DNA of 63,913 bases, counting the filler, from Collodictyon triciliatum (taxonomy: Eukaryota): NCBI GenBank assembly GCA_043381765.1. It is 4 parts of 4 records of this genome, joined end to end, with 100 filler letters (N's around TTAATTAATTAA, not from the genome) between each part and the next. Parts side by side here need not be neighbours in the genome. Positions count along the whole stretch, not along the records: positions 22,021 to 43,923 come from JBHJMP010001163.1; 3 more parts are not named here. One strand, 5' to 3'. How positions within the stretch are numbered: position 1 is the first letter of the stretch; each line of letters opens with the position of its first letter. The notes beneath the pieces were generated by a model. It was not told the DNA's origin, searched no databases, and saw only the letters and a list, made by a program, of their open reading frames with translations. Shown here in pieces: positions 7,125 through 58,746 of the stretch. A program made the position numbers and the translations under genes.

Positions 7125-9793
7125 ATGACGGGCGGACCTTCTCAGAAAGTCCCTCTGCTCCAGGGTTTGCAACTCTTCAGCTCTGCCCTGTTGCTCCCTC
7201 ATCCTGCTTATCCACACGTTATTGTGTGCCCCTTCCACAGCTAGTCCTCCAACACTGAGCTCCATAATTACTAAACTATGGTGTCGCAGCCTTATTGACT
7301 TTCTTTTAATTTCTTTTTCCATACCCGTGCCTTCCTCCACACTCCCTTTTTTTTTTTCGGTCCTCTTCCTCTTTCTATTGTGCTACTGAATCTATTCCCG
7401 TGAAACGAATCAATGCCATGCCGAATTGTGCTGAAGGACCCCCGTCCCATTTAGAGGACCGCTCCAACGCCGCTCACCCACCCACCGGCGCCGACGGAAA
7501 GGAGGATCTGAAGCGTGAGATCGAGCTTGTAAGGATCAGACCTCTCACGCACCATACTCGACCTCATTCTGTCTGTTTGTCTGTCTGTCTGTTTGTCTGT
7601 CTGTTTGTCTGTCTGTTTGTCTATCTGTCTGTCTGTCTGTTTGTCTATCTGTCTGTCTGTATTTGCGTCATAGCGCAGGCAGAGCCTAACCGCAGCAACT
7701 GCTTCACTTCCTTAGGACGACCACAAGCTCTCCATCGCCGACTGCCTCGCCCGCCACCGCACCGACCCCACCAAGGTATGTGTCTCCCAGCTGCCCTTCC
7801 TTCGAGACCAAACCACGCTGACTCGCATACCCACTTAACACACAGGGCCTGTCCAGCGTCGATGCCGAGGAGCGTCTCCGCACCTACGGACCCAATGCCC
7901 TGACTCCGCCCAAGCAGGATCCCGAGTGGAAGAAGCTGCTGAAGCAGTTCACCGGTGAGCCTTTGCCTTTGCCTTTGCCTTTTGCTTTCGAGTCCGGCTT
8001 GCTCTCTACTGCTGTCTAAGAAGCACGTGGCCACGCCTCCTTTCCACGCTGCGGAGTCCATGGAGGCCCGCACGAAGCAGTTCTGCACTCTGCTAACACA
8101 CGTCCTCTCTGGCCGATCCGTAGGCTGGTTCTCGATCCTTCTGGAGGTCGGAGCTCTGCTGTCCTTCATCGGCTACGCGCTGGACCCTGACGCACCCGAG
8201 AATGTATGTGCTCTCCTCCCCTCTTGTTGGCACCGCTCTCGCCTCCTGGCCTCTGCCTAACCCGGCATCCCCTCTCCGACTCGTGCAGCTGTACATCGGT
8301 GTCGTCCTGGCTGCCGTCGTCATCATCACGTCCGTCTTCAGCTACTACCAGGAGTTCAAGTCCAACTCCATCATGGAGAAGTTCAAGAACTTCCTGCCCC
8401 AGATGGCCACCGTCATCCGCAACGGCGAGAAGATCAAGATCGACGCCACCGACGTTGTCCCCGGAGACGTCATCGAGATCATCGGCGGGAACAAGGTCCC
8501 TGCCGATCTGCGCCTGATCCAAGTCAGCAACCTCAAGGTACTCCTCCTCCCACATAAGGCATCCTCCACCGGACACACAAAGACACAATCACACGCATGG
8601 ATTGAGTGAGTGAATGAGTGGGTGGGTGGGTGAGTCCTCGCTGACGGGCGTCGATGCACACCAGGTCGACAACGCCTCGCTGACGGGAGAGGCAGAGCCG
8701 CAGTCGCGCGGCCCCGAGATGACGGACGAGAACCCGCTGGAGACCAAGAACCTTGCGTTCTACGGGACGCTGGCCACGGAGGGCTCGGCCATCGGGATTG
8801 CGATCGGGACGGGCGACCGCACGGTCATCGGGCGCATTGCGGGCCTTGCTGCGTCCACGGTGGCCGAGGACACGCCGATCCACCGCGAGATCCACCACTT
8901 CATCCTGATCATCACGGGCGTCGCCATCTTCCTGGGCACCACCTTCTTCATGATCGGCATGATCATCTCGGGCGGCGACTGGATCACCAACCTGGTCTTC
9001 ATGATCGGCATCATCGTCGCAAACGTGCCCGAGGGCCTGCTCGCCACCGTCACCGTCTCCCTGACCCTCACGGCCAACCGCATGGCCTCCAAGAACGTCC
9101 TCGTCAAGAATCTCGAGGCCGTCGAGACCCTCGGCTCCACAACCACCATCTGCTCCGACAAGACCGGCACCCTGACCCAGAACGTCATGACTGTTTGTAA
9201 GTCTCTCTCTTTCTTTCTTTTACATACACACACACACACACACACACTCTCTCTCTCTCTCGCCCCCTCCTTTCTCACTTGGCCGCACCAACCAGCGCAT
9301 ATGTGGTACGACAAGTCCATCTTCGAGTGCGAGACGTCGACCCAGCGCGCAAACTTCAACCCGGCCGCACCCACCTTCCTGGCCCTCGCCCGCGTCGCCA
9401 CCCTCTGCAACCGCGCCGTCTTCGACCCCAAGAAGGAGCGCGATGCCCAGGGCCACATGGCGACCATCGGCGATGCCTCCGAGTCGGCCCTCATCAAGTT
9501 CTGCAACCCCATCCGCAACATCACCGAGTTCCGCGATGCCAACCCCAAGCTCTTTGAGATTCCCTTCAACTCCATGAACAAGTACCAGATCTCCATCCAC
9601 AAGCAGGAGTCTGCCGCCAACGACACCCGCCAATTGCTGGTCATGAAGGGTGCCCCCGAGCGCATCCTCGAGAGAAGCTCACACGTCCTCATCAACGGAA
9701 AGGTAACCCCACCCCTGATCCATGCAGATATAATATACACATCTCTTAACTCCATATCATCCCCGCGTGTATTCTTTATTATTATTATTATTC

Positions 9794-9835
<42 letters not shown>

Positions 9836-11736
9836 TAAAAAATAAAAGAAACAAACACACACACCCAACTGGTGGTGGAACGGCTATACCAAGAATCAAA
9901 CAACTGACCCCAGCTCGCTCAAATTACCCCGACCAGGTTGAGCCAGTCACCGAGCGCTTCCGCGCAGAGTTCCAGAAGGCCTACGAAACCCTCGGCTCCA
10001 TGGGTGAGCGCGTGCTTGGCTTTGCCCAGTTTGTCCTCCCTGCCGACCAGTTCCATGCCGACTTCTCCTACTCGGACAAGGATGGCGGAAACTTCCCCAC
10101 CTCTGACCTCTGCTTCGTCGGCCTCATGTCCCTCATCGACCCGCCCCGCCCGGCCGTCCCCGACGCCATCGCCAAGTGCAAGACCGCTGGTATCAAGGTC
10201 ATCATGGTTACCGGAGACCACCCCATCACTGCCAAGGCCATCGCCCGCCAGGTCGGAATCATCACCGATGACACCATCGAGGACATCGCCGAGAAGGAAG
10301 GCAAGTCTGTCCAGGACATCGACCCTAGCCGCGCCAACGCCATCGTCATCCATGGCCACCAGCTCAAGGAGTACACCGAGGACGATTGGGAGCGCACCAT
10401 GAACCACAGCCAGATCGTCTTTGCCCGCACTTCCCCTACACAGAAGCTCGTCATTGTCGAGCACTGCCAGATGCGCAAGGAGGTCGTCGCCGTCACCGGT
10501 GATGGTGTCAACGACTCGCCAGCCCTCAAGAAGGCCGATATTGGTGTCGCCATGGGTATCTCCGGTTCTGATGTGTCCAAGGAAGCTGCTGACATGATTC
10601 TGCTCGATGACAACTTTGCCTCCATCGTCCACGGTGTCGAGGAAGGTCGTCTCATCTTTGACAACTTGAAGAAGTCCATTGCCTACACTCTGTCCTCCAA
10701 CATCCCTGAGATTTCGCCCTTCCTGATCTACATCACCGTCAACGTTCCCCTGCCGCTCTCCACTGTGCTCATCCTCAGTATCGATCTTGGAACTGACATG
10801 ATTCCCGCCATCTCCCTCGCCTACGAGAAGGCCGAATCCGACATCATGAAGCGCCCACCCCGTAACTCCCAGACTGATCGCCTTGTGAATGCCCGCCTCA
10901 TCTCCTTCGCCTACTTCCAGATCGGTTTGTCTACCCTCCCTTCACTCGTAGTCTCTTTTTATTTTCTTCTTTCTTTTTATCCCCTTGTAACATCTCATGG
11001 GTTGAGTTGAGTGGAACTCGGCCTCTCCTCTCCTCTCCTCTCCTCTCCACTCCACTCCACTCCACTCCCCTCCCCTCCACTTGCTCCACAACAAACCCAT
11101 CAATCATACCAACGGTTCATCCTGCTCAGGTATGACCCAGGCTGTTGCTGGTTTCTTCACCTACTTTGTGGTCATGGGCGACTACTTCTTTGCCCCGTGG
11201 ATGCTCCCCGGAACGGGTCTCCTGTGGGAGGACGAGAATCAGGCTGTCAACGGCCGCAACTTCGTCGATCGTCGTGAGGCCCTCTACCGCGCCCAGACCG
11301 CCTTCTTCGTCTCGATCGTGGTTGTCCAGTGGGCTGACCTGCTCATCTGCAAGACCCGCAAGCTCTCCATCGTCACCCAGAAGATGAACAACGGCCACCT
11401 CAACTTCGGCCTGTTCTCTGAGACTGCCATCGCCGCCGCCCTCTGCTACGTCCCCTTCCTCAACACCATCTTCTCCACCCGCCCCATCCGCTTCGTCCAT
11501 TGGTGCCCTGCCCTCCCCTGGTGAGTAGTAGTGATGCTATCCTGCTCCTGCTCCTGCTCCTCCTTCCTGGTCTACCCATGCATTTTTCATTTTATTTATT
11601 TATTTTTCTGGTGCGCCTACTCAATACATTACTTTGCTGCAAAAGGTCGCTGCTCATCTTCCTGTACGACGAAGTGCGCAAGTACCTCATCCGCCAGAGC
11701 CCCAACGGCTGGCTCGACCGCTTCACCTACTACTAG
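7125..11736 (+). CDS. Na+/K+-transporting P-type ATPase alpha subunit (P2C), 11-exon model
   Basis: [92 protein letters not shown] and C-terminal RFTYY. Exon 1 (7125-7164) splices in phase to 7455. The start exon is the least certain part. Confidence 0.96.
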
Positions 11737-12954: not shown

Positions 12955-13930
12955 ATGAGCGCCGGAGAGAAAGGCACGAGCGTCGGCGGGATGGCGCGCT
13001 GGACTCGAGAGGAGGACGAGACACTCGGCGCCTCGGTGCGCGCACGCATGCCATGGACGGAGATATCTGTTCTTGTGTCACGCCTCAACGCCGCCTCGCC
13101 CAAGTCGCCCAAGCAGTGCTGCCAACGCTGGCAACGCGTCCTGAACCCGGCCATCCGCAAGGTACTCTATCTTCTATCTATGTAATCTATCTAATCTATC
13201 TACCATCTATCTGATCTATCTACCTATCTATCTATCTCTCTATCTTCCATCTATATCTCATCTACCTATCTCCATCCACCTGTCCTCCGTGTGTCGATGA
13301 TTGCCACGTACGCACAATCCCGGCCTAACCGTCGGTTCCATCGTTGCGCGACAGGGCCACTGGACCAAAGAGGAGGAGCGCATCCTGCAGGCGGCGGTGG
13401 CGCGTCTCGGGACCCGCGCGTGGGCGGAGGTCTCGAAGGAGATTGCCGGGCGCACGGGGCTGCAGTGCCGCACGCGGTGGATCCAGAGCCAGCAGCGGCA
13501 GCGCATCCAGCACCAGGCCAGCCTCGAACTCCGCCCGCCGGGCGCCGTGGTTGCCGCCGCGTACGGGCCGCTGGGCCAGCCGGACGGCTCCGTGGTCCGC
13601 ACACACATGGTCACGCACACCATCTCCACGCCCGCCGTGGATCTGTCTGGGAACGGCAGCGGCGGCCCGACTCGCCCCGATGGGAACCGTCGCCCGGACA
13701 TGAATATGAATGTGGATGTGGACGTGGATGTGGATGCGGACATGTGGCAGCATCTTGTGCGCGCCAGTCGCCAGATTCTGCATCCCCACGGCATCCCCAG
13801 CGACTCGGACAGCGCCACGCTTTCGCCGCCCTGTGACCGCCTTGGGCTGCAGCCGCAGAAGCAGCAGGTCCACACCCACGAGTATCCCCTCCAGAACCAC
13901 AAGCTCTCCTTCTCCTGGATACTCAATTGA
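12955..13930 (+). CDS. Two-repeat (R2R3-like) Myb/SANT DNA-binding protein, 2 exons (12955-13161, 13355-13930)
   Basis: RWTREEDETL...PWTEIS...KSPKQCCQRWQRVLNPAIRK|GHWTKEEERIL...RAWAEVSKEIAGRTGLQCRTRW shows regularly spaced Trp and the LNPxxxKGxWT linker. Confidence 0.9.
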
Positions 13931-21920: not shown

Positions 21921-22020
21921 NNNNNNNNNNNNNNNNNNNNNNNNNNNNNNNNNNNNNNNNNNNNTTAATTAATTAANNNNNNNNNNNNNNNNNNNNNNNN
22001 NNNNNNNNNNNNNNNNNNNN
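21921..22020. other. Artificial contig spacer
   Basis: 44 N + TTAATTAATTAA (stops in all six frames) + 44 N. Confidence 0.98.
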
Positions 22021-23059
22021 TTTTTTCTTTTTTTCTTTTTTTCTTTTTTTCTTTTTTTCTTTTTTTCTTTTTTTCTTTTTTCTTTTTTTCTTTTTTCGAA
22101 GAAATAATATCTGAGAAAAAAATACCGAGCAGGAAGCACGCTGGCAAGAGAAAACGAAAAAGAAGGACATTTCGAACGGATGTCGACATCTTTCTTCCTT
22201 CCTTGCACTCTTGAATGCTACTCCAGTCGACGCTAACCAGTCGCGTGTACGCGTCTACCTCTCTGTCGGGAAGCACAATTTGCGTTCGCTGGTCTGTTCT
22301 TTGGAGTGCACTTGCGTATTGCTATTGGCAGTGGGCGACTGAAATCAGGTGCATTTAGTTGTTTTTTGTTTTTTGTTTTTTGAGGAGAGAAGAGAAGACT
22401 GGCCCTTGCATGGGATTCGCGTTTGCTCAGGCCACAACGTTGAGAGGCCTCTCCGCAGTTTTGCCGCGGTTGTGCCTGCGCGTCATCGCCCAGTCTGCGT
22501 GTGTTTTGACAGCTGCCTGATCCTGCTCGTTTGGCGCGCATATTTTGTTTTATGGATCGACGCAAAACCACAACATAATTTCCGCAAATAGAAGTACTAA
22601 GACTTTGGCACCATCCAATGAAACGCACGATTCTAGTCTCGAACACTCTAACCCGCCTCTGAACAACACAAGACTTCGCCAGCTGTTCCGCCTAGTGCGC
22701 CATACAAAGTCCAATCCCACAAGCCACACACGTGCCACCTTCCATTTCTGGATACATAAATTCATCAAAACCACACGATGAAAATGTTTGCGCGGCAGAC
22801 TACCCTTGATACAAATATATATTATTTTACTGAATATTATATATATATATCCTATAGAGAAAGATTTCTTTGAAAGAATCTTCTACCTTTTTTGCCTTCT
22901 TGTTGGCTGTGGGTGCCCGAGCCCTAAGATCCGCTTTCCACGAATCCGATCCCTCGCGATGCATCATGAACCAATACGATGTTTTCTCAGATCAAATCCG
23001 CAACACACAAATACACAGACACAAATCACAAGACACGCGGGATACTCGCTCGCTCTTTG

Positions 23060-23164
23060 AACTCAACTCAACTCAACTCAACTCAACTCAACTCAACTCA
23101 ACTCAACTCAACTCAACTCAACTCAACTCAACTCAACTCAACTCAACTCAACTCAACTCAACTC
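23060..23164. repeat. (ACTCA)n pentanucleotide microsatellite
   Basis: Perfect tandem ACTCA units just upstream of the ATG at 23215. Confidence 0.95.
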
Positions 23165-23214: not shown

Positions 23215-26200
23215 ATGGATCGTGGTTTTCTCGCAGCTTTGATCCTTGTGCTCGCCCTTATTGCAGCGGCCAACGCATATGCGCTCAGCAAACCAGCCAC
23301 TGTGGCAAACACCGCACATGACTCGCTGCCCCGTGTCGAGTCTCTCAGCAGACTGCAACGCAGCGCTCAAGCTCGTCGCACAGTGCGACCACAGCCGATC
23401 CGCATCAAGGTCGCGGAGGTCCAGCAGATAGCCGATCAGGAAGTCCGGGCCCTGCTTGTGAACGATCTCTTCCCGGCCGCCGTCTCTTCTCTCGCTTCGA
23501 TCCTGCGTGTTTGGACACCGCTTGAATCCAACCTAACTCTGCCTCGCACGTGCTCCTCCGTCAACCCCACGACTGGTTTGCCTCAGCTATTGTGACACTT
23601 TTTCTTTTTCTTTTTCTTTTTCTTTTTCTTTTTCTTTTCCTTTTCCTTTTCTTTTCCTTTTCTTTTGGATATGTTTTAGTTTCTGGTAGGGAATGGGTTC
23701 AGTGAGCACGCTATTCGAGAATCGGTTTGTTGGGCATATCTTTACTCTAACCATCTATCTGACCCAGGCGTGTGCCAAACCTATGCTGAGAAAACTATTT
23801 GTGGAACCACAGAGATCCCTCCCCAGTATCTGACGGGCCAGGGTTCTGGTGCTGCCGCCGATTTTATTCTGTTCCTGCAATACAACAGCGTCCCTGCCTG
23901 CACAGCTGAAAAATCCGTCACCATTGAATACTGCCACCGCCTGGCCGAGGATGACCGGTATGGGATAATTATATGCTTGCATAAATCCTTATAAATATCA
24001 TCAAGTCTTCTAACACCATCGCAAATTAATAAATGGAAAAAAAAAAGCCCAACGTCAGGAATTGTTAACATCTGCCCTGCGTTCCTCAAGCTGGGCTATG
24101 TGTCACAGAAGAAGTTTGTTCTGCACGTTTTGATGCATCAAGCTGGATTCCATCAAGTACACATGCCCTTCTGGAGAGACGAGTTTGGAGAGCCCAGGTC
24201 GCTATCTCTTTTTCTTTCGTCAAATCAAGGCTACTATTCATATCCGTGGAATCAGCCTTTTTTTTGAAAAAGATACGTGAAAGTGCAGGCAACCCTCTGG
24301 AAATTTTGGTGTTAATCCTCATAGTTTATCGCAAATAGAGTGCCCCGCGAGAGCTCTGGCCTCCCCGTCATCGACGAATTAACCAAAGGATATTCAACTG
24401 CGAATGTGGTCCAGTCTTTCACTGAACGTGGACATACAGTGAAAAAGCTGATCACTCCGAACGCGCTTGCCTTTGCTCGCAAACACACCGGATGCTCGAC
24501 GCTGAATGGTATCTTCAATAAAGATTCGAATCCATCGTCTATCATGTATGCATCCCCATCTCTCCATAATGTGTTAACTTTAAAGAAAGGGCTTGAAAGC
24601 TAAGTCGGAGCTAACTCAAATCCATATTTTAGGTGTTGAGTTGGAAGATCAAGGAAGTGAAGCTGGAAGCAACTGGGAGGCTCGTGTTGCTCTCGGGTAA
24701 GTCGTCCCTCGGTCCCATGTTAATCCTCTATATACCCATCAGATTCTATTGAGTTATCAGCCTGATGTGTAAATGTTGTTCCTCAAAATTTAAAGAATGG
24801 TATTTCACGTAGGGAAATCATGGAGGGAACCATACGTGACTCGTCTGTTGTGTCATTGCTTACTCTAGGTGCGTTCCAAGACATGGGTTGGTACGACGTC
24901 AATCTGCTCCAGGTATTTGAATTTTCGCTTTCAGTCATGTATATATATATCGCTAACGTGTGAGGATTCAGACTGGAATACTTATGTAAACGTCTCAAAA
25001 GGCCTCCACTCTGCCTTGGGGTTACCAACGAGGATGTGCAGCGGTGACAGAAAAATGTATTCAGGATGAGGCCCCTGTCGATGAGACAATGTTTTGCCAC
25101 ATTCCTGGCCCGGACACTCGCTTTTACTGCACAAATAATCGCCGTGGATTTGGCGCCTGCAATACTACAACATATGCCAACAACCTCCCTGCCCAGTATC
25201 AGTACTTTGAGAACCCCAAAGTCGGAGGTTTGTCCTTCATAAGTCATACATCAGAGTTATAATAGATATTGTGTGTCCATCGGTTTCAATTTTCTGGAAT
25301 ACAGCCCCGGCTTCATCTCACATAAGCACTTAAGTATGGAGCCTGCAGACTAAGCAGCCACACCTTAGGAAGTGAAAGTTTACTAGATTACTGTCCCATC
25401 ATCCGGCCCCTTCCCACGGGTTCCTGCAATCCTTTCGGCTATTCTACTGGTGTGATTGATGAATACGGATCTAGCCTCGGTGTTGATTCGTTTTGCTTTG
25501 ACTCCACCCTTGCTTACGGCGGTGTCGCTGATGACATTCAAGCTCGCTGCTACCGAGTAATTTTTTTATATTATGTTATCTCAATATGCAATTATGTAAA
25601 ATATGGTCTAACTGAGACAAAAATACTTGCTATCTATCGGGGGTTTGTCCTTACTTTCTATTATTTTTTTAATGCTTTTTACTTCGCTCATTGACCCTTT
25701 GATTTTGTGTGTCAGGCTGATTGCATCCAAAGGTACCCCCAGGCACCGCACCGAGTGCGTGTTACGATTGGATTTGAGTCTCATATTTGTGACACTGACG
25801 ACGAGCAGCTGCTCTTTTCCAGGTATGGGCACTCTCCAGAAAAATTTGAGCATGAATAAATCTGAATCAAATCTGCTCTTTAGCTACACAGGCTACATCC
25901 AGTGCCCTCCTGTCCATTCCATCTGCCCCGAGCACGAGTGTGCTTGCTCTGCTGGTGGGAAATGCATTGAAGGGGAATGCTACTGTCCATTTGGCAACTG
26001 CGGTGACTCTACTATTTACCATTAACATAATGAGAGTTTTTTTGCACTCTGTCAAATTTACTTTACTATAGTATGTATTATATTTCTCAAGATATACTGC
26101 ATCAATAGCAACTGATTGTATCTTGAGCGAGTGGTCAGCTTGGTCGAGTTGCAGTGCTGAATGTGGCCCTGGAACACAAACCCGCACTCGTGAGGTTATT

Positions 26201-28137
26201 TCAGCTCCCAAAAATGGAGGCGTTGCATGTGGTGTCCTGGAGGAATCCATGGACTGTAATCTCGGCACCTGCAGTATGTATTACCACCCTTTACATTTTT
26301 TTATGTCGCAGAATTTCTAGGAGAGCTTGAAATCGTCTCAAATATATTGTCATGGAAGAGGAGGTAAAGGAAAGTTGATGCCAAACCTATCTGTACTCAC
26401 AATAGACCAAGGAGATGAAACGCCTCAACCCACTGGAGCAATATACGACTGGCAAACTAGTGAATGGTCACCTTGTGAGCCTTTATGCCTTCGTGGACTG
26501 AAGCACCGAGATGTGTTTTGCGTTCACGTACCCTCTGGGGAAACCGTAAGTCCTTTTTGCGACCAATCCATTCGCCATGGAATGTGCAGTTCTCTGATAA
26601 TACTTTATCATTCTTGTACCGTAACTATGGTGACATTATGGCTATGCTGATAGGTTGGTGACTGCTTCTGTCAACAAGAAAAGCCAGAGGAGGAGACCGA
26701 TTGCCACGATGAGCCCGACCTTTCCCACACCTGTACAGCCACAGAAACCATCGGACCCGAGGGAGGAGAGGGTATGACTGTATTCGTCTTTTATTTCTAT
26801 TTTTTTTTTTTTTGTGGTTTCATTCTAACTTCATATTAAGTTGCTTTTTCTGATTCGTCATTATTCTTTCTGTCTCGTTGAATATCTTGTCTCAAGTTTA
26901 TCATGAGGAGCACATGTCCTTCACCCTGCCTCCTAATGCTGTGAATATGACTTATGTCATCAAAATCACAACGTACGAGACATACGGCGAGATCGACAAG
27001 GCCAAAGTAAGTCCCCAACAAACGGTATTGAAGACTATAGCACGACAAAAGCTATCACCATTTATGCTGAATCTGCGGGTTCACAGGCCCCTAATCCCTT
27101 CCTTTTCCTCTACTTGTCTTGCAGTACAGCGACCCCCTCCCTCACTCGCTCGTGTCGCCTCTCTTTGAATTCCAACCATCCGGGCTGACCTTCAAGCATC
27201 CTGCCGCTATTCGCATCCTGATTCCACACGAAAAGTACGACAGCCACGATGAGTATGCTGTTTTTATTCTCTCTGAAGGATCTGTCTGGGAGCGCTCCAA
27301 CCACACGTCCATCCACAAGGAGCACCACGTAATTACATCAAGATGCAGGAAAGAATCATGATTGAAAACGAAATGAAATCGGCTCATTATTTCTCAAGCC
27401 ATCTAACTTTCTCCTTTGGTGTCGCGTGTACCATAAATGCAGGAGGTGTTTTTGTACGGAGAAGTGGAGCACTTTTCCCTCGTTGCAGCCTTCCGAATCG
27501 AAGAGGAACCAATCGACCTTTGTAAGTCATCAGATTGCTGATATATACTTGCTCCACATCTCTCCCTGACTGTGTGGTTTATATTCTTATTCGTTGTCGC
27601 TTTCTCTCTTTCTCTCTTTCTCTCTTTCTCTCTTTCTCTCTTTCTCTCTTTCTCTCTTTCTCTCTTTCTCTCTTTCTCTCTTTCTCTCTTTCTCTCTTTC
27701 TTTCTTCCTCCCGCTGCAGCCGACGCCATCCGCAACGGAGTCCTGCTTGTGCTCCTGCTTTGCGCCATGACGGGGCTCTGCCTCTTCTACTTTTCCCGCC
27801 AGGACCACACAAAGACATCAGCACCGTTCGACTGGAGCAATATCGGCCGAAGCCTGCGTGGCCTCTGCATGCCAGCAGTTTGTTTCCTTCATTCCTGCCT
27901 CTCGTCATTCTCCTTTTTTCACACCTGCTTCTTTTGTTGGTATCTTTCTATCTTTCTATCTTTCTATCTTTCTATCTTTCTATCTTTCTATCTTTCTATC
28001 TTTCTATCTTTCTATCTTTGTATGTGCTTGTTGACATTGCGCTGGCTTCGTCTCGCTTGACTCAGTGTCTTCTTGTTATGACAATCCTGCAGCCTGCCGA
28101 ACTGCGCCAACGCAACGACGCTGACGAGCATCTCTAA
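23215..28137 (+). CDS. Leishmanolysin/GP63 (peptidase M8)-like type I membrane protein, predicted inactive: signal peptide-M8-EGF-TSP1-TSP1-ZU5-TM-short tail
   Basis: Signal peptide MDRGFLAALILVLALIAAANA. M8-like ADFILF, DDRPTSGIVNICP, LITPNALAFARKHTGCSTLNGVELEDQG, LTLGAFQDMGWY, LDYCP, SFCFDSTL, ARCYR. EGF CSAGGKCIEGECYC. TSP1 WSAWSSCSAECGPGTQTRTR and WQTSEWSPCEPLC. ZU5 IGPEGG...LPPNAV...VSPLFEFQPSGLTFKHPAAIRILIPH. TM GVLLVLLLCAMTGLCLFYF. Ends PAELRQRNDADEHL*. Confidence 0.88.
27601..27700. repeat. Compound (TTTCTCTC/TTTCTCTCTC)n intronic repeat; a (TTTCTATC)n tract follows at about 27942-28019 in the next intron
   Basis: Visible tandem pyrimidine units inside introns of the M8-like gene. 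Confidence 0.9.
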
Positions 28138-28441
28138 ATCGCAAAACCCGACCTGCACCCGATACAACCCTGCGAATCCGCTACTCTTGCAGAAAGCCGT
28201 CTTTTTGTTGACCACTCTCCTACAATTCAGCTCAGCTCTTTTTCTCTCTTTCCATCTCGATGTTGTGCATGGTCACCAACCACCCCATTTTTTGGTTCGT
28301 GCTGTGTTTGGAGCGACCTGTTTGTATGTCGCTGGAAGCACCTGCACTCTATCATAATCGCACCGACGCCAGTCATCCCCTTTCAGCCCAGTCTCTCATC
28401 TCTTTTCCTTATTTCTGCATGACCTCCTCTACATTAAACCC

Positions 28442-28490
<49 letters not shown>

Positions 28491-28995
28491 ACACATACAC
28501 AACCTGCCCATTCCCTCTGTGGTAAGCGCCCACAGCCGGTTCATGAAGCGCAACACTGCTGGTTTGTCTGCTTCGGCAATTCTCTGCAGGCCGAAAAACT
28601 CATTCTCATATTCTCCACATATGGGATGCGGGCTGAAGGGACAATAATGGCATCGAATCCACACAGGCTGTGCAACTTCGAATCTATTGTAAAAGACCAA
28701 AAGTGGGATGATTCTCCGGCTTTAATTTTACATATTGTGATTTGTAGCAGTCGAAGTAGCAGAAGCAGCATGAGATTTTATATTTTCCAGAAATAGTATA
28801 TATGTGTTTTCGGCGTTCGAACCGGCGCTCCGGTTTTGGTTTCTTACGAAACGTTCCTCTTAATCCTCTTGGGTTGTGTGGAGGGAAAGGACTCACCAGC
28901 CAGTCCCACGCACAAAGTCTGTAAAGAAGGCACAAAGACAGAGCGGAAGGGAATAAACAGACAATTGAAGGGCGCTGAGAGGTTTGTGGACAAAA

Positions 28996-35821: not shown

Positions 35822-37785
35822 TAGCATATCCTTCAATTTTGCGACCCAAAAAATCAACTTCGAGCGACCTGGATTTCAAAGCCAAGGAACGTTGATGCAG
35901 ACTACTCTTTAACGATGAATTTCAAACCAATCAAAGTGATTGTCACGCCAACATTAATTCGTCATGTTGTAGATTTCTTCTCGCCACCAGGTTATCTTTA
36001 GTTCAGTTAGACATATTTTCACCATCATGCTCCGAAGTCGTGCATTCCCATTTTATATCAATTTAAGTATTTCTTAAAGCAAGTATATCATTGTTAATAT
36101 ATTTAACTCATATATTTTACAACACCAATTAGATGATGTTGATATTAGAGACCTCTTGAAAGCAGCGACAAATGCCGCTGCGAATGTTGTAGAGAACACA
36201 AAAAAATCATTTGCCAACCTGCTTGATGTTAAGCGATTAGTTGACTTAGATCTACATGTTTTTGGACCACACGTCATTCTGCCTTGCGATGCCTTATCAG
36301 AAACGGGAGAAAGTTTTGTGTTTGATATGGGTTGCTTGTCGATACACTCAGGATTGACTCCAGATTTACAATCATCTATGTCGCAACTACAAGAAAAAGT
36401 ACAGCTAGAGCAGCTTTACTTTGACATTTTCTCCTTACACCTAGAAGGTGTCTCTTTGAAGTATTGTGGAGATGGATTTACTGAAATGCTTTTGAATCCT
36501 GTGAATGTTAATTCTTTGGCACTAGTGCGCCATTTTGACGAGGTTTCACTTTTCATTCCTTTTTTAGTAATTTACCACTGCTCGAATATTTCTATAACCA
36601 TGAACATTATATACAGAATGAAAGTAACTTAATCATCCGATTCTTGACATAATCTGAAATGATATTTTCTTGTACCAATTTGCTGATACATTGACATATA
36701 GAAAAAATATCCGAAATTGTCGCTTAGTTTCAAGGTGATACCTCTATAGGACACATCACATCATCGATTATTTTTTTTTTTGTCTGTTACCTGTTATATC
36801 AGATGATTAATAAAAAAAAAATACAACGTTGTCAGATTCCAAAGCTACACTTTAACATATCATCTCGTCGGGTGATTTTACTGAACAACCTTATGAAAAC
36901 TATAACTATCATGGAAAGTTTTACAGCTTCGGATTTGAAAGTATATATTTTCTCTCTTTTTCTTTCTCCCTTTAAAGTATGAGATGAAATTGGTGTTGAT
37001 CTTCTAAAAAAATTATTTGTATTCATAAGGTACCACTCTTTGACTGAAATTAAATTGTGTATGTAAAATGCTTGAATATTAGCTCAAATCAGCCATGCCT
37101 GTCGAAGTATACGACTTTCAGACGAGTTCATGGGTGAGGTGCAGGGCTGTGGTTATTGGGAAGCAGTTGCATATGTACCGCGATGTACCTGAACAGCAAA
37201 GCAATGTAATCGACATACCTTTGTCTGATTATTTCTTCACTACAAAACCAAAAGACCCGAAAGGTGATTTAATTTTAATTTTAATTTTAATTTTTACTTC
37301 TGTTTCTGATATACGATATCATTTTATTTTGAAAATGAAATATATAATGAATATCGCTCCACACTCACTTTTTTGAAGATGGGCAACTGTGACATTTAAG
37401 TGTAAGCCTTATTATTCGTAATGAATTTAAATTTTCGTATAGACGGCAAAGCCAGATTTTTTGAATTGCGAGGTGTTCGTGCCAAACTCAAGTATCCATT
37501 CATACAATTGCGTGTATTCAGTGACGATGATTTGAATTTTTGGTCCCAAAAAATTGTTCCATTTGCTTCAAGAGAGTCCAAATCCGAAGCTGATGCGAGT
37601 GCTGTATGATTCTTTTTCGCTAAATGCTTACCTGACATGTAATTGCCTTTTATACCAATCTGTCAATGATTTTTGAAAATTAAAACTGGTAAGACGCAAG
37701 ATGGCTTTGTCCTATTGTTCGGAGTGGATGACCTTTCTGTCAGCTTGAAAGATTCTGGTCAAAGTATAAGATTAATTGTATATAA

Positions 37786-43923: not shown

Positions 43924-44023
43924 NNNNNNNNNNNNNNNNNNNNNNNNNNNNNNNNNNNNNNNNNNNNTTAATTAATTAANNNNNNNNNNNNNNNNNNNNN
44001 NNNNNNNNNNNNNNNNNNNNNNN
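43924..44023. other. Artificial contig spacer
   Basis: 44 N + TTAATTAATTAA + 44 N. Confidence 0.98.
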
Positions 44024-44172: not shown

Positions 44173-48542
<4,370 letters not shown>

Positions 48543-58646: not shown

Positions 58647-58746
58647 NNNNNNNNNNNNNNNNNNNNNNNNNNNNNNNNNNNNNNNNNNNNTTAATTAATT
58701 AANNNNNNNNNNNNNNNNNNNNNNNNNNNNNNNNNNNNNNNNNNNN
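58647..58746. other. Artificial contig spacer
   Basis: 44 N + TTAATTAATTAA + 44 N. Confidence 0.98.

Follow-up and report, generated by a model that had tools for sequence, protein, structure and literature searches.

The window analysed here is a stretch of 63,913 nucleotides (filler included) from Collodictyon triciliatum (GCA_043381765.1), of which positions 22,021 to 43,923 come from JBHJMP010001163.1. This part carries a gene whose 887-residue product comprises, from N- to C-terminus, a segment read as a signal peptide, a dead M8 (leishmanolysin) domain, an EGF-like module, two TSP1 repeats, a Cys-free domain of ~130 residues, a single transmembrane (TM) helix and a short tail (Table 1). 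Judged from its sequence, the gene product is a type I protein of the cell surface, made by a CRuMs protist related to Diphylleia. The spliced model is open throughout, with AG/GT at each exon boundary, and tblastn with residues 19-903 of P0001, the orthologue from Diphylleia rotans, produced colinear matches across the gene. Exons upstream of 25822 are a homology-based model only, whereas RNA verifies the model from 25884 to the 3' end: all of the last ten introns, 25822/25884 through 27877/28093, are spanned at the predicted GT..AG sites by RNA contigs from the four public runs examined, all four of which contributed (two studies). The junction within the second TSP1 repeat (intron 26546-26653) was found in 4/4 runs, the junctions of the first TSP1 exon in runs X1 and X3, and the tail intron (27878-28092) in X1 and X4; junction 27521/27720 is present only in contig records 5, 9 and 10. 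One contig (X4 record 10, 1081 nt) extends from the second TSP1 repeat into the 3' UTR.

Table 1. Features of the gene, with positions counted along the whole window.
Feature	Position	Strand	Basis or remark
Whole gene	23215..28137	+	18 exons, 887-codon CDS
Exon 1, with start codon, N-terminus resembling a signal peptide (MDRG, then a hydrophobic run) and pro-region	23215..23575	+	Hydropathy
M8 (leishmanolysin) pseudo-protease, eight exons	23768..25822	+	Peptidase_M8 profile matches
EGF-like six-Cys module	25884..26002	+	Cys pattern; both exon borders RNA-bridged
TSP1 repeat 1, one phase 1-1 exon	26109..26273	+	TSP1_spondin, E 4.2e-19
TSP1 repeat 2	26406..26740	+	Exon 26406-26545 and first part of exon 26654-26771; TSP1_ADAMTS, E 7.9e-7
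ZU5 domain, ~130 residues, four exons	26741..27499	+	Pfam and PDB profile search
ZU5 exon parts	26741-26771, 26897-27006, 27125-27328, 27443-27499	+	Exon from 27443 continues to 27521
Sequon NMT inside ZU5 domain	26966..26974	+	Same alignment column as orthologue NNT
His-Phe-Ser, candidate autoproteolytic site	27470..27478	+	Read from sequence; conserved in P0001; expected cut between Phe (27473-27475) and Ser (27476-27478)
Acidic linker to the membrane, preceded by the predicted last strand (SLVAAFRI)	27476..27736	+	Exon end 27521, intron, exon start 27720
Single TM helix GVLLVLLLCAMTGLCLFYF	27737..27793	+	Hydropathy maximum 2.45 at residues 827-829
Cytoplasmic tail, 42 residues	27794-27877 + 28093-28134	+	Stop codon 28135-28137; conserved motif FDW(S/N)NIGRSLRGLCMPAP

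Searching exon 27125-27328 against 1.84 billion representative proteins recovered one true relative, the D. rotans transcript P0001, which is held in EukProt without annotation. Its architecture is identical to that of the window protein, and overall identity is 48.7%. Among the large domains, the ZU5 domain is the best conserved (58.8%, against 43.8% for M8); the EGF-like module reaches 70.6% and the segment containing the predicted strand and linker 57.1%, while the TM helix, at 30%, is the lowest of all parts. The tail motif is identical at 17 of its 18 residues. No bacterial relatives of the ZU5-like domain emerged from this protein search, the one bacterial match, P0002, being an RCC1-repeat protein.

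The head of the protein includes an M8 domain by profile. Peptidase_M8 matches occur in the reading frames of four of the eight M8 exons (best E 7.9e-16, Pfam), P0001 matches the family at E 8.8e-48 (Pfam), and its best PDB match is leishmanolysin 1LML (E 8.4e-17). When P0001 is aligned to 1LML, its HTLLH falls under HEMAH and its GHWEAR under SHIKMR; the HVLMH (exon 24048-24182) and SNWEAR (with SNWE in exon 24633-24696) of the window protein occupy these same columns of the orthologue. Thus, the profile match to M8 is present, but the HExxH motif with its catalytic Glu, together with the third His zinc ligand of an active M8 enzyme, is not. Because the catalytic Glu is replaced by Val in the window protein and by Thr in Diphylleia, and the third zinc His by Asn in the window protein, the M8 domain is a pseudo-enzyme. 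The module at 25884..26002 is labelled EGF-like from its Cys pattern because Pfam found no EGF match there. For the second TSP1 repeat, the match in P0001 spans model positions 1-51 of 55, and the PDB matches of the P0001 TSP1 region include MIC2 and UNC5B (E 2.6e-6). The ectodomain, consisting of the dead M8, the EGF-like module and two TSP1 repeats, most likely serves in binding or adhesion and not in catalysis.

In exon 1, Kyte-Doolittle 19-residue windows reach at least 1.6 from residues 1-3 onward, and on this sequence basis we read the N-terminus as a putative signal peptide. Apart from the N-terminus, the TM helix is the sole hydrophobic segment common to the window protein and P0001; hydropathy revealed no convincing hydrophobic segment ahead of it, only one borderline stretch at about residues 60-90, in the window protein alone. 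Given the putative signal peptide, the 39 Cys distributed across M8, EGF and TSP1, and the lack of a convincing segment before the single TM helix downstream of ZU5, placement of the ZU5 domain on the extracytoplasmic side is supported. The N-x-T sequon within this domain (residue 706 in the window protein, residue 733 in P0001) is conserved and would fit exposure to the secretory pathway.

The stalk domain, which starts at about 26741 with TETIGPEGGE, is supported as ZU5 by profile comparison. In the orthologue, it matches Pfam ZU5 (PF00791) at E 8e-6 and 26.5 bits (curated cutoff 21), and ZU5 is the sole family matched. A PDB profile search with the orthologue and the window exons yielded eight matches at E <=10, all of them ZU5 proteins (ankyrins, ZO-1); the best is ankyrin-1 3ud1 (E 0.0012), and both ankyrin ZU5 domains align in register, including IGPEGG. 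The significant scores derive from the orthologue, whose domain is 59% identical, and not from the window's own exons. The sequence HFS occurs once per protein and is kept in both species (EVEHFSLVAAF in the window protein, ELEHFSIVAGF in P0001). It starts ~123 residues after the start of the domain, near its C-terminal end, and its Ser lies 21 residues from the TM helix. From the composition of the protein itself, the chance expectation of HFS is 0.085 per protein and ~0.001 per 11-residue window. Preservation of three residues in two species only, at 58% local identity, is a weak indicator of selection. The HMMER alignments to the Pfam and PDB ZU5 domains extend over the first 80-107 domain residues, ending short of HFS; by its position in the sequence, HFS is a candidate for the turn before the last strand, a strand that SLVAAFRI is predicted to form.

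This anatomy had been anticipated by the first-pass annotation, whose statements on the sequence all proved correct and which described a dead M8, two TSP1 repeats after the M8 and EGF modules, a ZU5-like domain located outside the cell, HFS at 27470-27478, and a single TM helix about 20 residues later with a tail of roughly 40 residues. The codons for HFS lie exactly there, the TSP1 and ZU5 assignments were recovered by profile, the loss of M8 catalytic residues was confirmed, the distance and the tail measure 21 and 42 residues, and the extracellular location is supported by continuity from the putative signal peptide to the TM helix.

Given the intact HFS signature in the ZU5 stalk, the reading that we favor, with a probability of about 0.5, is that the outer part of the protein would be cut and held without a covalent bond, so that an adhesion head would sit on a TM stub. 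According to the accessible text of PMC3210808, cleavage in ZU5-like domains happens near the C-terminus of the domain, immediately ahead of the last strand, depends on the Ser and on burial of the Phe, and leaves the fragments associated; bacterial MAIN (microbial GAIN-like) domains anchored to the cell envelope are likewise described as cleaving between F and S of HFS and staying associated (bioRxiv 10.64898/2026.05.12.724683, in part). By this scheme, the buried Phe would strain the backbone during folding in the ER, and the Ser hydroxyl, aided by the His, would attack the Phe carbonyl in an N-to-O acyl shift, followed by hydrolysis of the ester. The products would be the N-terminal ectodomain and a stub beginning at Ser, and the two would stay together non-covalently because the first strand of the stub, SLVAAFRI, would remain lodged in the ZU5 sandwich. 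If prey or substrate, for example, then pulled on this head, the ectodomain could come free, and the strongly conserved cytoplasmic motif of the remaining TM stub would serve sorting or signalling.

It is also quite possible, if less probable, that the ZU5 domain outside the cell does not cleave and acts as a stalk or as a module for oligomerisation or binding, in which HFS is kept only because the Phe and neighbouring residues have a structural role, the protein remains a single chain and any shedding is performed by other proteases. Ankyrin and ZO-1 ZU5 domains, the best PDB matches, are not known to self-cleave. The ZU5 domains of UNC5 receptors lack autoprocessing and, among UNC5-type proteins, autoproteolysis is described in the accessible part of PMC10084454 only for Unc5CL. 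UNC5b carries Leu in place of the Phe, which shows that a residue of purely structural role is tolerated there (PMC3210808, in part). Furthermore, the juxtamembrane extracellular ZU5-superfamily domain of FAM171A1/A2 forms trimers, and the stem 'autoproteoly' appears 0 times in the accessible text of the preprint describing it (10.1101/2025.09.18.675241). Against a non-cleaving stalk, all three ancestral residues are kept here and followed by a conserved strand-like stretch, and the exact HFS at the equivalent place is cleaved in PIDD and Nup98 (PMC3210808, in part) and in B. subtilis MAIN (10.64898/2026.05.12.724683, in part).

A reading in which the domain is unrelated to ZU5 and is instead a lineage-specific beta-rich spacer, with weak profile matches and an HFS that arose by chance, is improbable. 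When the window was scanned with Pfam exon by exon, exon 27125-27328 matched ZU5 below the cutoff of 21 (E 0.02, 15.6 bits), and the remaining two ZU5 exons had no Pfam match; a PDB search with a single window exon placed ankyrin-1 first at E 0.36, beside two unrelated matches. Only one relative exists, and therefore no deep profile could be built; AlphaFold2 on the shallow 5-row alignment gave a mean pLDDT of 34.1, with no residue above 50. Among language-model neighbours, the best three named clusters are ZU5, with scores of 0.87-0.89, which, being below 0.9, serve as a lead only. What argues against a spacer is the above-cutoff Pfam match of the orthologue to ZU5 and no other family, the uniformly ZU5 matches in PDB with both ankyrin domains in register, and the location of the window exon match at profile positions 55-89, in the correct order after 8-78 in the orthologue.

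Least probable is a TRAP/MIC2-like motility adhesin freed by rhomboid-type intramembrane cleavage of the TM helix, with ZU5 as a spacer: the TSP1 repeats, single TM helix and short tail with a conserved Trp (FDW here) do resemble apicomplexan TRAP-family adhesins, and MIC2 is among the TSP1 matches, but the TM helix is the least conserved part and lacks a small-residue motif conserved in both species, and the tail Trp does not lie near the C-terminus.

A candidate cleave-and-hold ZU5 stalk can be compared with several known systems. PIDD1, UNC5CL and the ZU5-like half of the NLRP1/CARD8 FIIND share the Pfam ZU5 family and carry H-F-S (or S-F-S) at the C-terminal end before the last strand (PMC3210808, in part), but these are cytosolic and continue into UPA and a death-fold domain, whereas here the domain is extracellular, follows TSP1 and leads into a linker, the TM helix and the tail. 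UNC5 receptors have the order Ig-Ig-TSP1-TSP1-TM-ZU5-UPA-DD with a cytosolic, non-cleaving ZU5 (PMC10084454, in part), in agreement with the TSP1-TSP1-TM-ZU5 order given in the first-pass annotation. In contrast, Pfam scans of the window exons and the orthologue detected no UPA, death, CARD or Ig match, and in the window protein the TM helix follows ZU5, the head is an M8 pseudo-protease and the tail is short. The GAIN domain of adhesion GPCRs and polycystins is an extracellular juxtamembrane cleave-and-hold device with an H-x-S/T site, but it additionally possesses the helical subdomain A and the Cys-rich GPS, and the exposed peptide is sensed by a 7TM or 11TM body downstream; the window domain is a ZU5 free of Cys and of such additions, followed by one TM segment, and no GAIN or GPS Pfam match was found in the orthologous domain at E <=10.

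Parallels also exist in bacteria and archaea. A 2012 prediction placed ZU5 autopeptidases at the base of surface proteins in bacteria, and also in polymorphic toxins (PMC3482391, in part), and HF|S cleavage has been shown for MAIN of bacteria and archaea, such as B. subtilis YfkN (10.64898/2026.05.12.724683, in part). These are surface-anchored adhesion or enzyme heads on an HFS-cleaving beta-sandwich, for which shear release has been proposed (both sources, in part), whereas the window protein, from a eukaryote, is anchored by a TM helix and carries a conserved motif on the cytoplasmic side. Among eukaryotes, the type I proteins FAM171A1/A2/B have a sandwich of the ZU5 superfamily immediately outside the TM helix, but its alignment with real ZU5 is poor (RMSD 4.8-5.1 A) and the accessible text mentions no self-cleavage (bioRxiv 10.1101/2025.09.18.675241), whereas the window domain is found by Pfam ZU5 and keeps HFS; no FAM171 chain is among the eight PDB profile matches, which are all ankyrin or ZO-1. 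The claim that nothing with such an architecture had been described was thus overstated, being preceded by the D. rotans transcript, bacterial ZU5/MAIN and FAM171. CILP, too, has an extracellular ZU5-like domain. With these extracellular or surface-anchored HFS and ZU5-like precedents, the idea is not categorically new; the eukaryotic variant is.

To our knowledge, all eukaryotic ZU5 domains described as self-cleaving are intracellular, and the published extracellular ZU5-like domains (FAM171) are divergent. GAIN, SEA and bacterial MAIN are self-cleaving juxtamembrane domains of surface proteins that part under force, and the same cleave-and-hold logic is proposed here with a canonical ZU5. 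A transcript-verified, single-pass protein from a deep-branching, little-studied lineage, with a standard ZU5 and an intact HFS outside the cell, would offer a compact, simple model of this chemistry, and would supply a link that can be dated between the GAIN and ZU5 branches of the superfamily. Liao et al. reportedly proposed a common origin of GAIN and ZU5 in 2014; the shared origin is also stated in PMC3482391 (in part). Conceivable but unlikely is that extracellular ZU5 above a TM helix represents the surviving ancestral state of GAIN (adhesion GPCR/polycystin) and of the UNC5 TSP1-TSP1-(TM)-ZU5 cassette, the latter differing, on this view, only in the place of the TM. In that case, cleave-and-hold receptors sensitive to force would be older than animals and would act in a unicellular predator, and the tail motif FDWxNIGRSLRGLCMPAP would be an intracellular read-out of ectodomain loss. 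If there is no cleavage, the protein would be a lineage-specific domain shuffle of modest interest. The M8 fold that leishmanolysin (GP63)/invadolysin (MEROPS M8) share by profile with the window protein and its orthologue is inactive by sequence in the window protein and fused to EGF-like, TSP1, ZU5 and TM segments, a clear example of a leishmanolysin pseudo-enzyme that most likely took on a new role as an adhesion head.

The stalk belongs to an 18-exon gene whose strand is plus by splice orientation, minus-strand frames over the region being short or derived from intron microsatellites. Introns between the last eight exons (tabulated below) are skipped exactly, with GT..AG ends, by RNA contigs from four public RNA-type runs of two studies, which we compared with the window over 25800-28300. 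Two of the four runs, both freshwater metatranscriptomes, match the window at 99% or more, and one contig of 1081 nt covers 26508-28300 in spliced form. For the junction 27521/27720 the evidence is confined to the table of contig pieces, since an octamer repeat adjoins it. Ten upstream exons, beginning at 23215, were modelled with P0001, the transcript-derived orthologue from Diphylleia rotans (EukProt), as a guide; nine of them were placed by homology only, and RNA contigs also confirm the border 25822/25884. The spliced product has 887 residues, is colinear with P0001 residues 19-903, and is identical to it at 427 of 876 aligned positions (48.7%).

Exons in the 3' part of the gene
Feature	Coordinates	Strand	Remarks
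3' exons of gene	26109-26273, 26406-26545, 26654-26771, 26897-27006	+	canonical splicing, open frame
Last exons of gene	27125-27328, 27443-27521, 27720-27877, 28093-28137	+	canonical splicing, open frame

Contigs from two of the runs (X1 and X4) are only 90-99% alike to the window, with several differences at 26471-26717 and 28158-28250, so close relatives or strains also express the gene; in the other two runs (X2 and X3) the likeness is at least 99%. The table of X1 and X4 differences, which may be incomplete, lists none in the His-Phe-Ser (HFS) codons. Long perfect microsatellites occupy introns and flanks of the gene (27600-27710, 27941-28023, 23598-23666, 23060-23164 and 28443-28501; units are the octamers CTTTCTCT and TATCTTTC, CTTTTT, AACTC and AC) and account for long spurious open frames.

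The product begins with a signal-peptide-like N-terminus, followed by an M8 domain (E 8.8e-48 in P0001), a six-cysteine EGF-like module, two TSP1 repeats (Pfam E 4.2e-19 and 7.9e-7), a domain of some 130 residues that contains no cysteine, then an acidic linker, a single hydrophobic helix and a 42-residue tail. The tandem TSP1 repeats, the HFS triplet, the transmembrane helix (TM; 21 residues past the serine) and the tail are as the first-pass annotation had read them. The first TSP1 repeat is a single exon with phase 1 at both ends. In animals, symmetric phase-1 exons typically encode extracellular modules that have been shuffled, and here such an exon occurs in a CRuMs-type protist gene.

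Aligned with leishmanolysin (1LML), P0001 places HTLLH under HEMAH and GHWEAR under SHIKMR, and those columns read HVLMH and SNWEAR in the window protein; searched against PDB, the HVLMH exon returned a single, irrelevant match. The catalytic glutamate is therefore lost in both species, and the M8 domain, already called dead in the first-pass annotation, is by this alignment a dead protease, with the third zinc ligand additionally lost in the window. Hydrophobic segments common to both proteins occur only at the N-terminus and the TM (a borderline stretch at about residues 60-90 is confined to the window protein), which places the cysteine-free domain on the side of the disulfide-rich modules, outside the cell, as had been proposed. 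A conserved N-x-T sequon inside that domain fits this placement.

Several profile comparisons point to ZU5 as the identity of the cysteine-free domain. Scored exon by exon against Pfam, the window domain matched ZU5 positions 55-89 through exon 27125-27328 (15.6 bits, E 0.02; the cutoff of 21 was not reached), and its two flanking exons had no Pfam match. The orthologous domain, 59% identical, matched ZU5 positions 8-78 at 26.5 bits (E 8e-6), the sole family at E up to 10. When the orthologue domain and the window exons were combined into a profile, all eight PDB matches at E up to 10 were ZU5 proteins (ankyrin-1, -2 and -3 and ZO-1; best E 0.0012), with both ankyrin ZU5 domains aligned in register, IGPEGG included. 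Exon 27125-27328 by itself retrieved ankyrin-1 first (E 0.36) together with two unrelated matches, and language-model neighbours were ZU5 clusters (0.87-0.89), which the tool grades as a lead only. As the first-pass annotation had held, the stalk is very probably homologous to ZU5. AlphaFold2 on an alignment of five rows, the orthologue domain and four window exons, gave pLDDT 34.1 and pTM 0.28, too low for a usable model; a deeper alignment was impossible because no other relatives were found, and two further alignments (A1 and A3) were set aside because short exon rows were misplaced. The ZU5 domain is better conserved relative to P0001 (58.8% identity) than the M8 head (43.8%), which suggests that the stalk is more than a mere spacer.

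The HFS triplet occurs once per protein, at residue 804 in the window and 833 in P0001 (0.085 expected per protein from composition), and the residues around it are conserved (EVEHFSLVAAFRI in the window protein, ELEHFSIVAGFRI in its orthologue). In both species it lies at the C-terminal end of the domain, beginning some 123 residues from the domain start, and is followed by the acidic linker. In PIDD1, the HFS sites are about as far from where each of the two ZU5 domains begins. The HFS end of the stalk domain falls outside the reach of the Pfam and PDB alignments, the HFS exon alone had no PDB match, and with only two species, 58% identical locally, selection on three residues cannot be demonstrated. 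For association of the two fragments, complex prediction of P0001 residues 707-834 with 835-868 scored 0.51 three times, with controls at 0.39, 0.02 and 0.00, which speaks neither for nor against. Past the TM, which is only 30% identical, the tail motif FDW(S/N)NIGRSLRGLCMPAP (27827-27877 plus 28093-28095) is nearly invariant between the window and Diphylleia; to our knowledge it matches no motif that could be named, and it probably binds a cytoplasmic partner.

Our best reading, to which we give a probability of about one half, is that of a cleave-and-hold surface protein with HFS as its candidate self-cleavage site. Autoproteolysis between Phe and Ser would take place during folding, the first strand of the stub would remain in the sandwich, and force could then release the adhesive pseudo-protease/TSP1 head, the remaining stub carrying the tail motif. 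If it cleaves, the protein would work like GAIN and SEA domains, like bacterial surface proteins for which basal ZU5 autopeptidases are predicted in PMC3482391, and like bacterial and archaeal MAIN domains. The latter were shown in a preprint (Brogan and Rudner, bioRxiv 10.64898/2026.05.12.724683) to cleave at the F-S bond of HFS, and their fragments stay associated; they are envelope-anchored and bear adhesion or enzyme heads. PMC3482391 derives ZU5, GAIN-B and Nup98-C from one HFS-bearing autoproteolytic domain, and PMC10084454 credits this common descent to Liao et al. 2014. Neither UNC5 nor a GAIN protein fits as an identity: the protein lacks Ig, UPA and death domains and its TM lies on the other side of ZU5, and it has no GAIN/GPS match and a single TM only. 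Cleave-and-hold anchoring is already known from bacteria and, in the form of GAIN, from animals, so the architecture is best regarded as a variant of it. Liao et al. in 2014 reportedly placed extracellular ZU5-like domains also in CILP and FAM171.

The main competing explanation, somewhat less probable than the cleave-and-hold reading, is that ZU5 here does not cleave and serves as a stalk or for oligomerisation, like the ZU5 domains of UNC5, ankyrin and ZO-1. In its favor, the extracellular ZU5-superfamily domain of FAM171 adjoins the TM and forms trimers (bioRxiv 10.1101/2025.09.18.675241); on the other side stands the single HFS, retained in both species. Less likely than this are a chance resemblance to ZU5, which is improbable against eight ZU5 proteins among eight PDB matches, and a TRAP-like adhesin released by rhomboid, a model considered and set aside as very unlikely.

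The first-pass annotation had also presumed the architecture to be undescribed, which was too strong: the Diphylleia transcript has the exact architecture, and MAIN domains and the predictions in PMC3482391 are precedents. Beyond PMC3482391 and the MAIN and FAM171 preprints, the literature search returned no description of extracellular ZU5, InterPro architectures and the PMC3482391 supplement lying outside it. Among 1.84 billion representative proteins, exon 27125-27328 (68 residues) matched two: P0001 (918 residues, 64% identity, E 1.9e-19) and a bacterial RCC1-repeat protein (P0002), discarded as spurious. A word-index search of longer proteins with this exon found none and also missed P0001 itself; P0001 residues 640-918 retrieved, among proteins of similar length, only P0001 and a fish TSP1/PLAC protein (P0004), residues 700-918 retrieved no shorter protein at E up to 10, and none of 136 pattern matches in a JGI metagenome scan was confirmed. 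The exact architecture is known only from the window organism and one Diphylleia transcript without annotation.

Elsewhere, Rfam had no match anywhere in the window, and positions 21921-22020, 43924-44023 and 58647-58746, none in the gene studied, each consist of two runs of 44 N with 12 bases between (gaps or masked sequence). A weak VPS13_N-like frame lies at 36078-36632 (+; E 8.8e-5, far under cutoff), a frame with a Myb DNA-binding domain at 13301-13930 (+; E 1.1e-12), and a glycine cleavage system P-protein gene of several exons at about 45600-47100 (-; GDC-P E 3e-36 and 3e-30). A P-type cation ATPase gene (E1-E2_ATPase, Cation_ATPase and Cation_ATPase_C) occupies about 8100-11500 (+); its exons are GC-rich (57%), the rest of the window having 32-45% GC.
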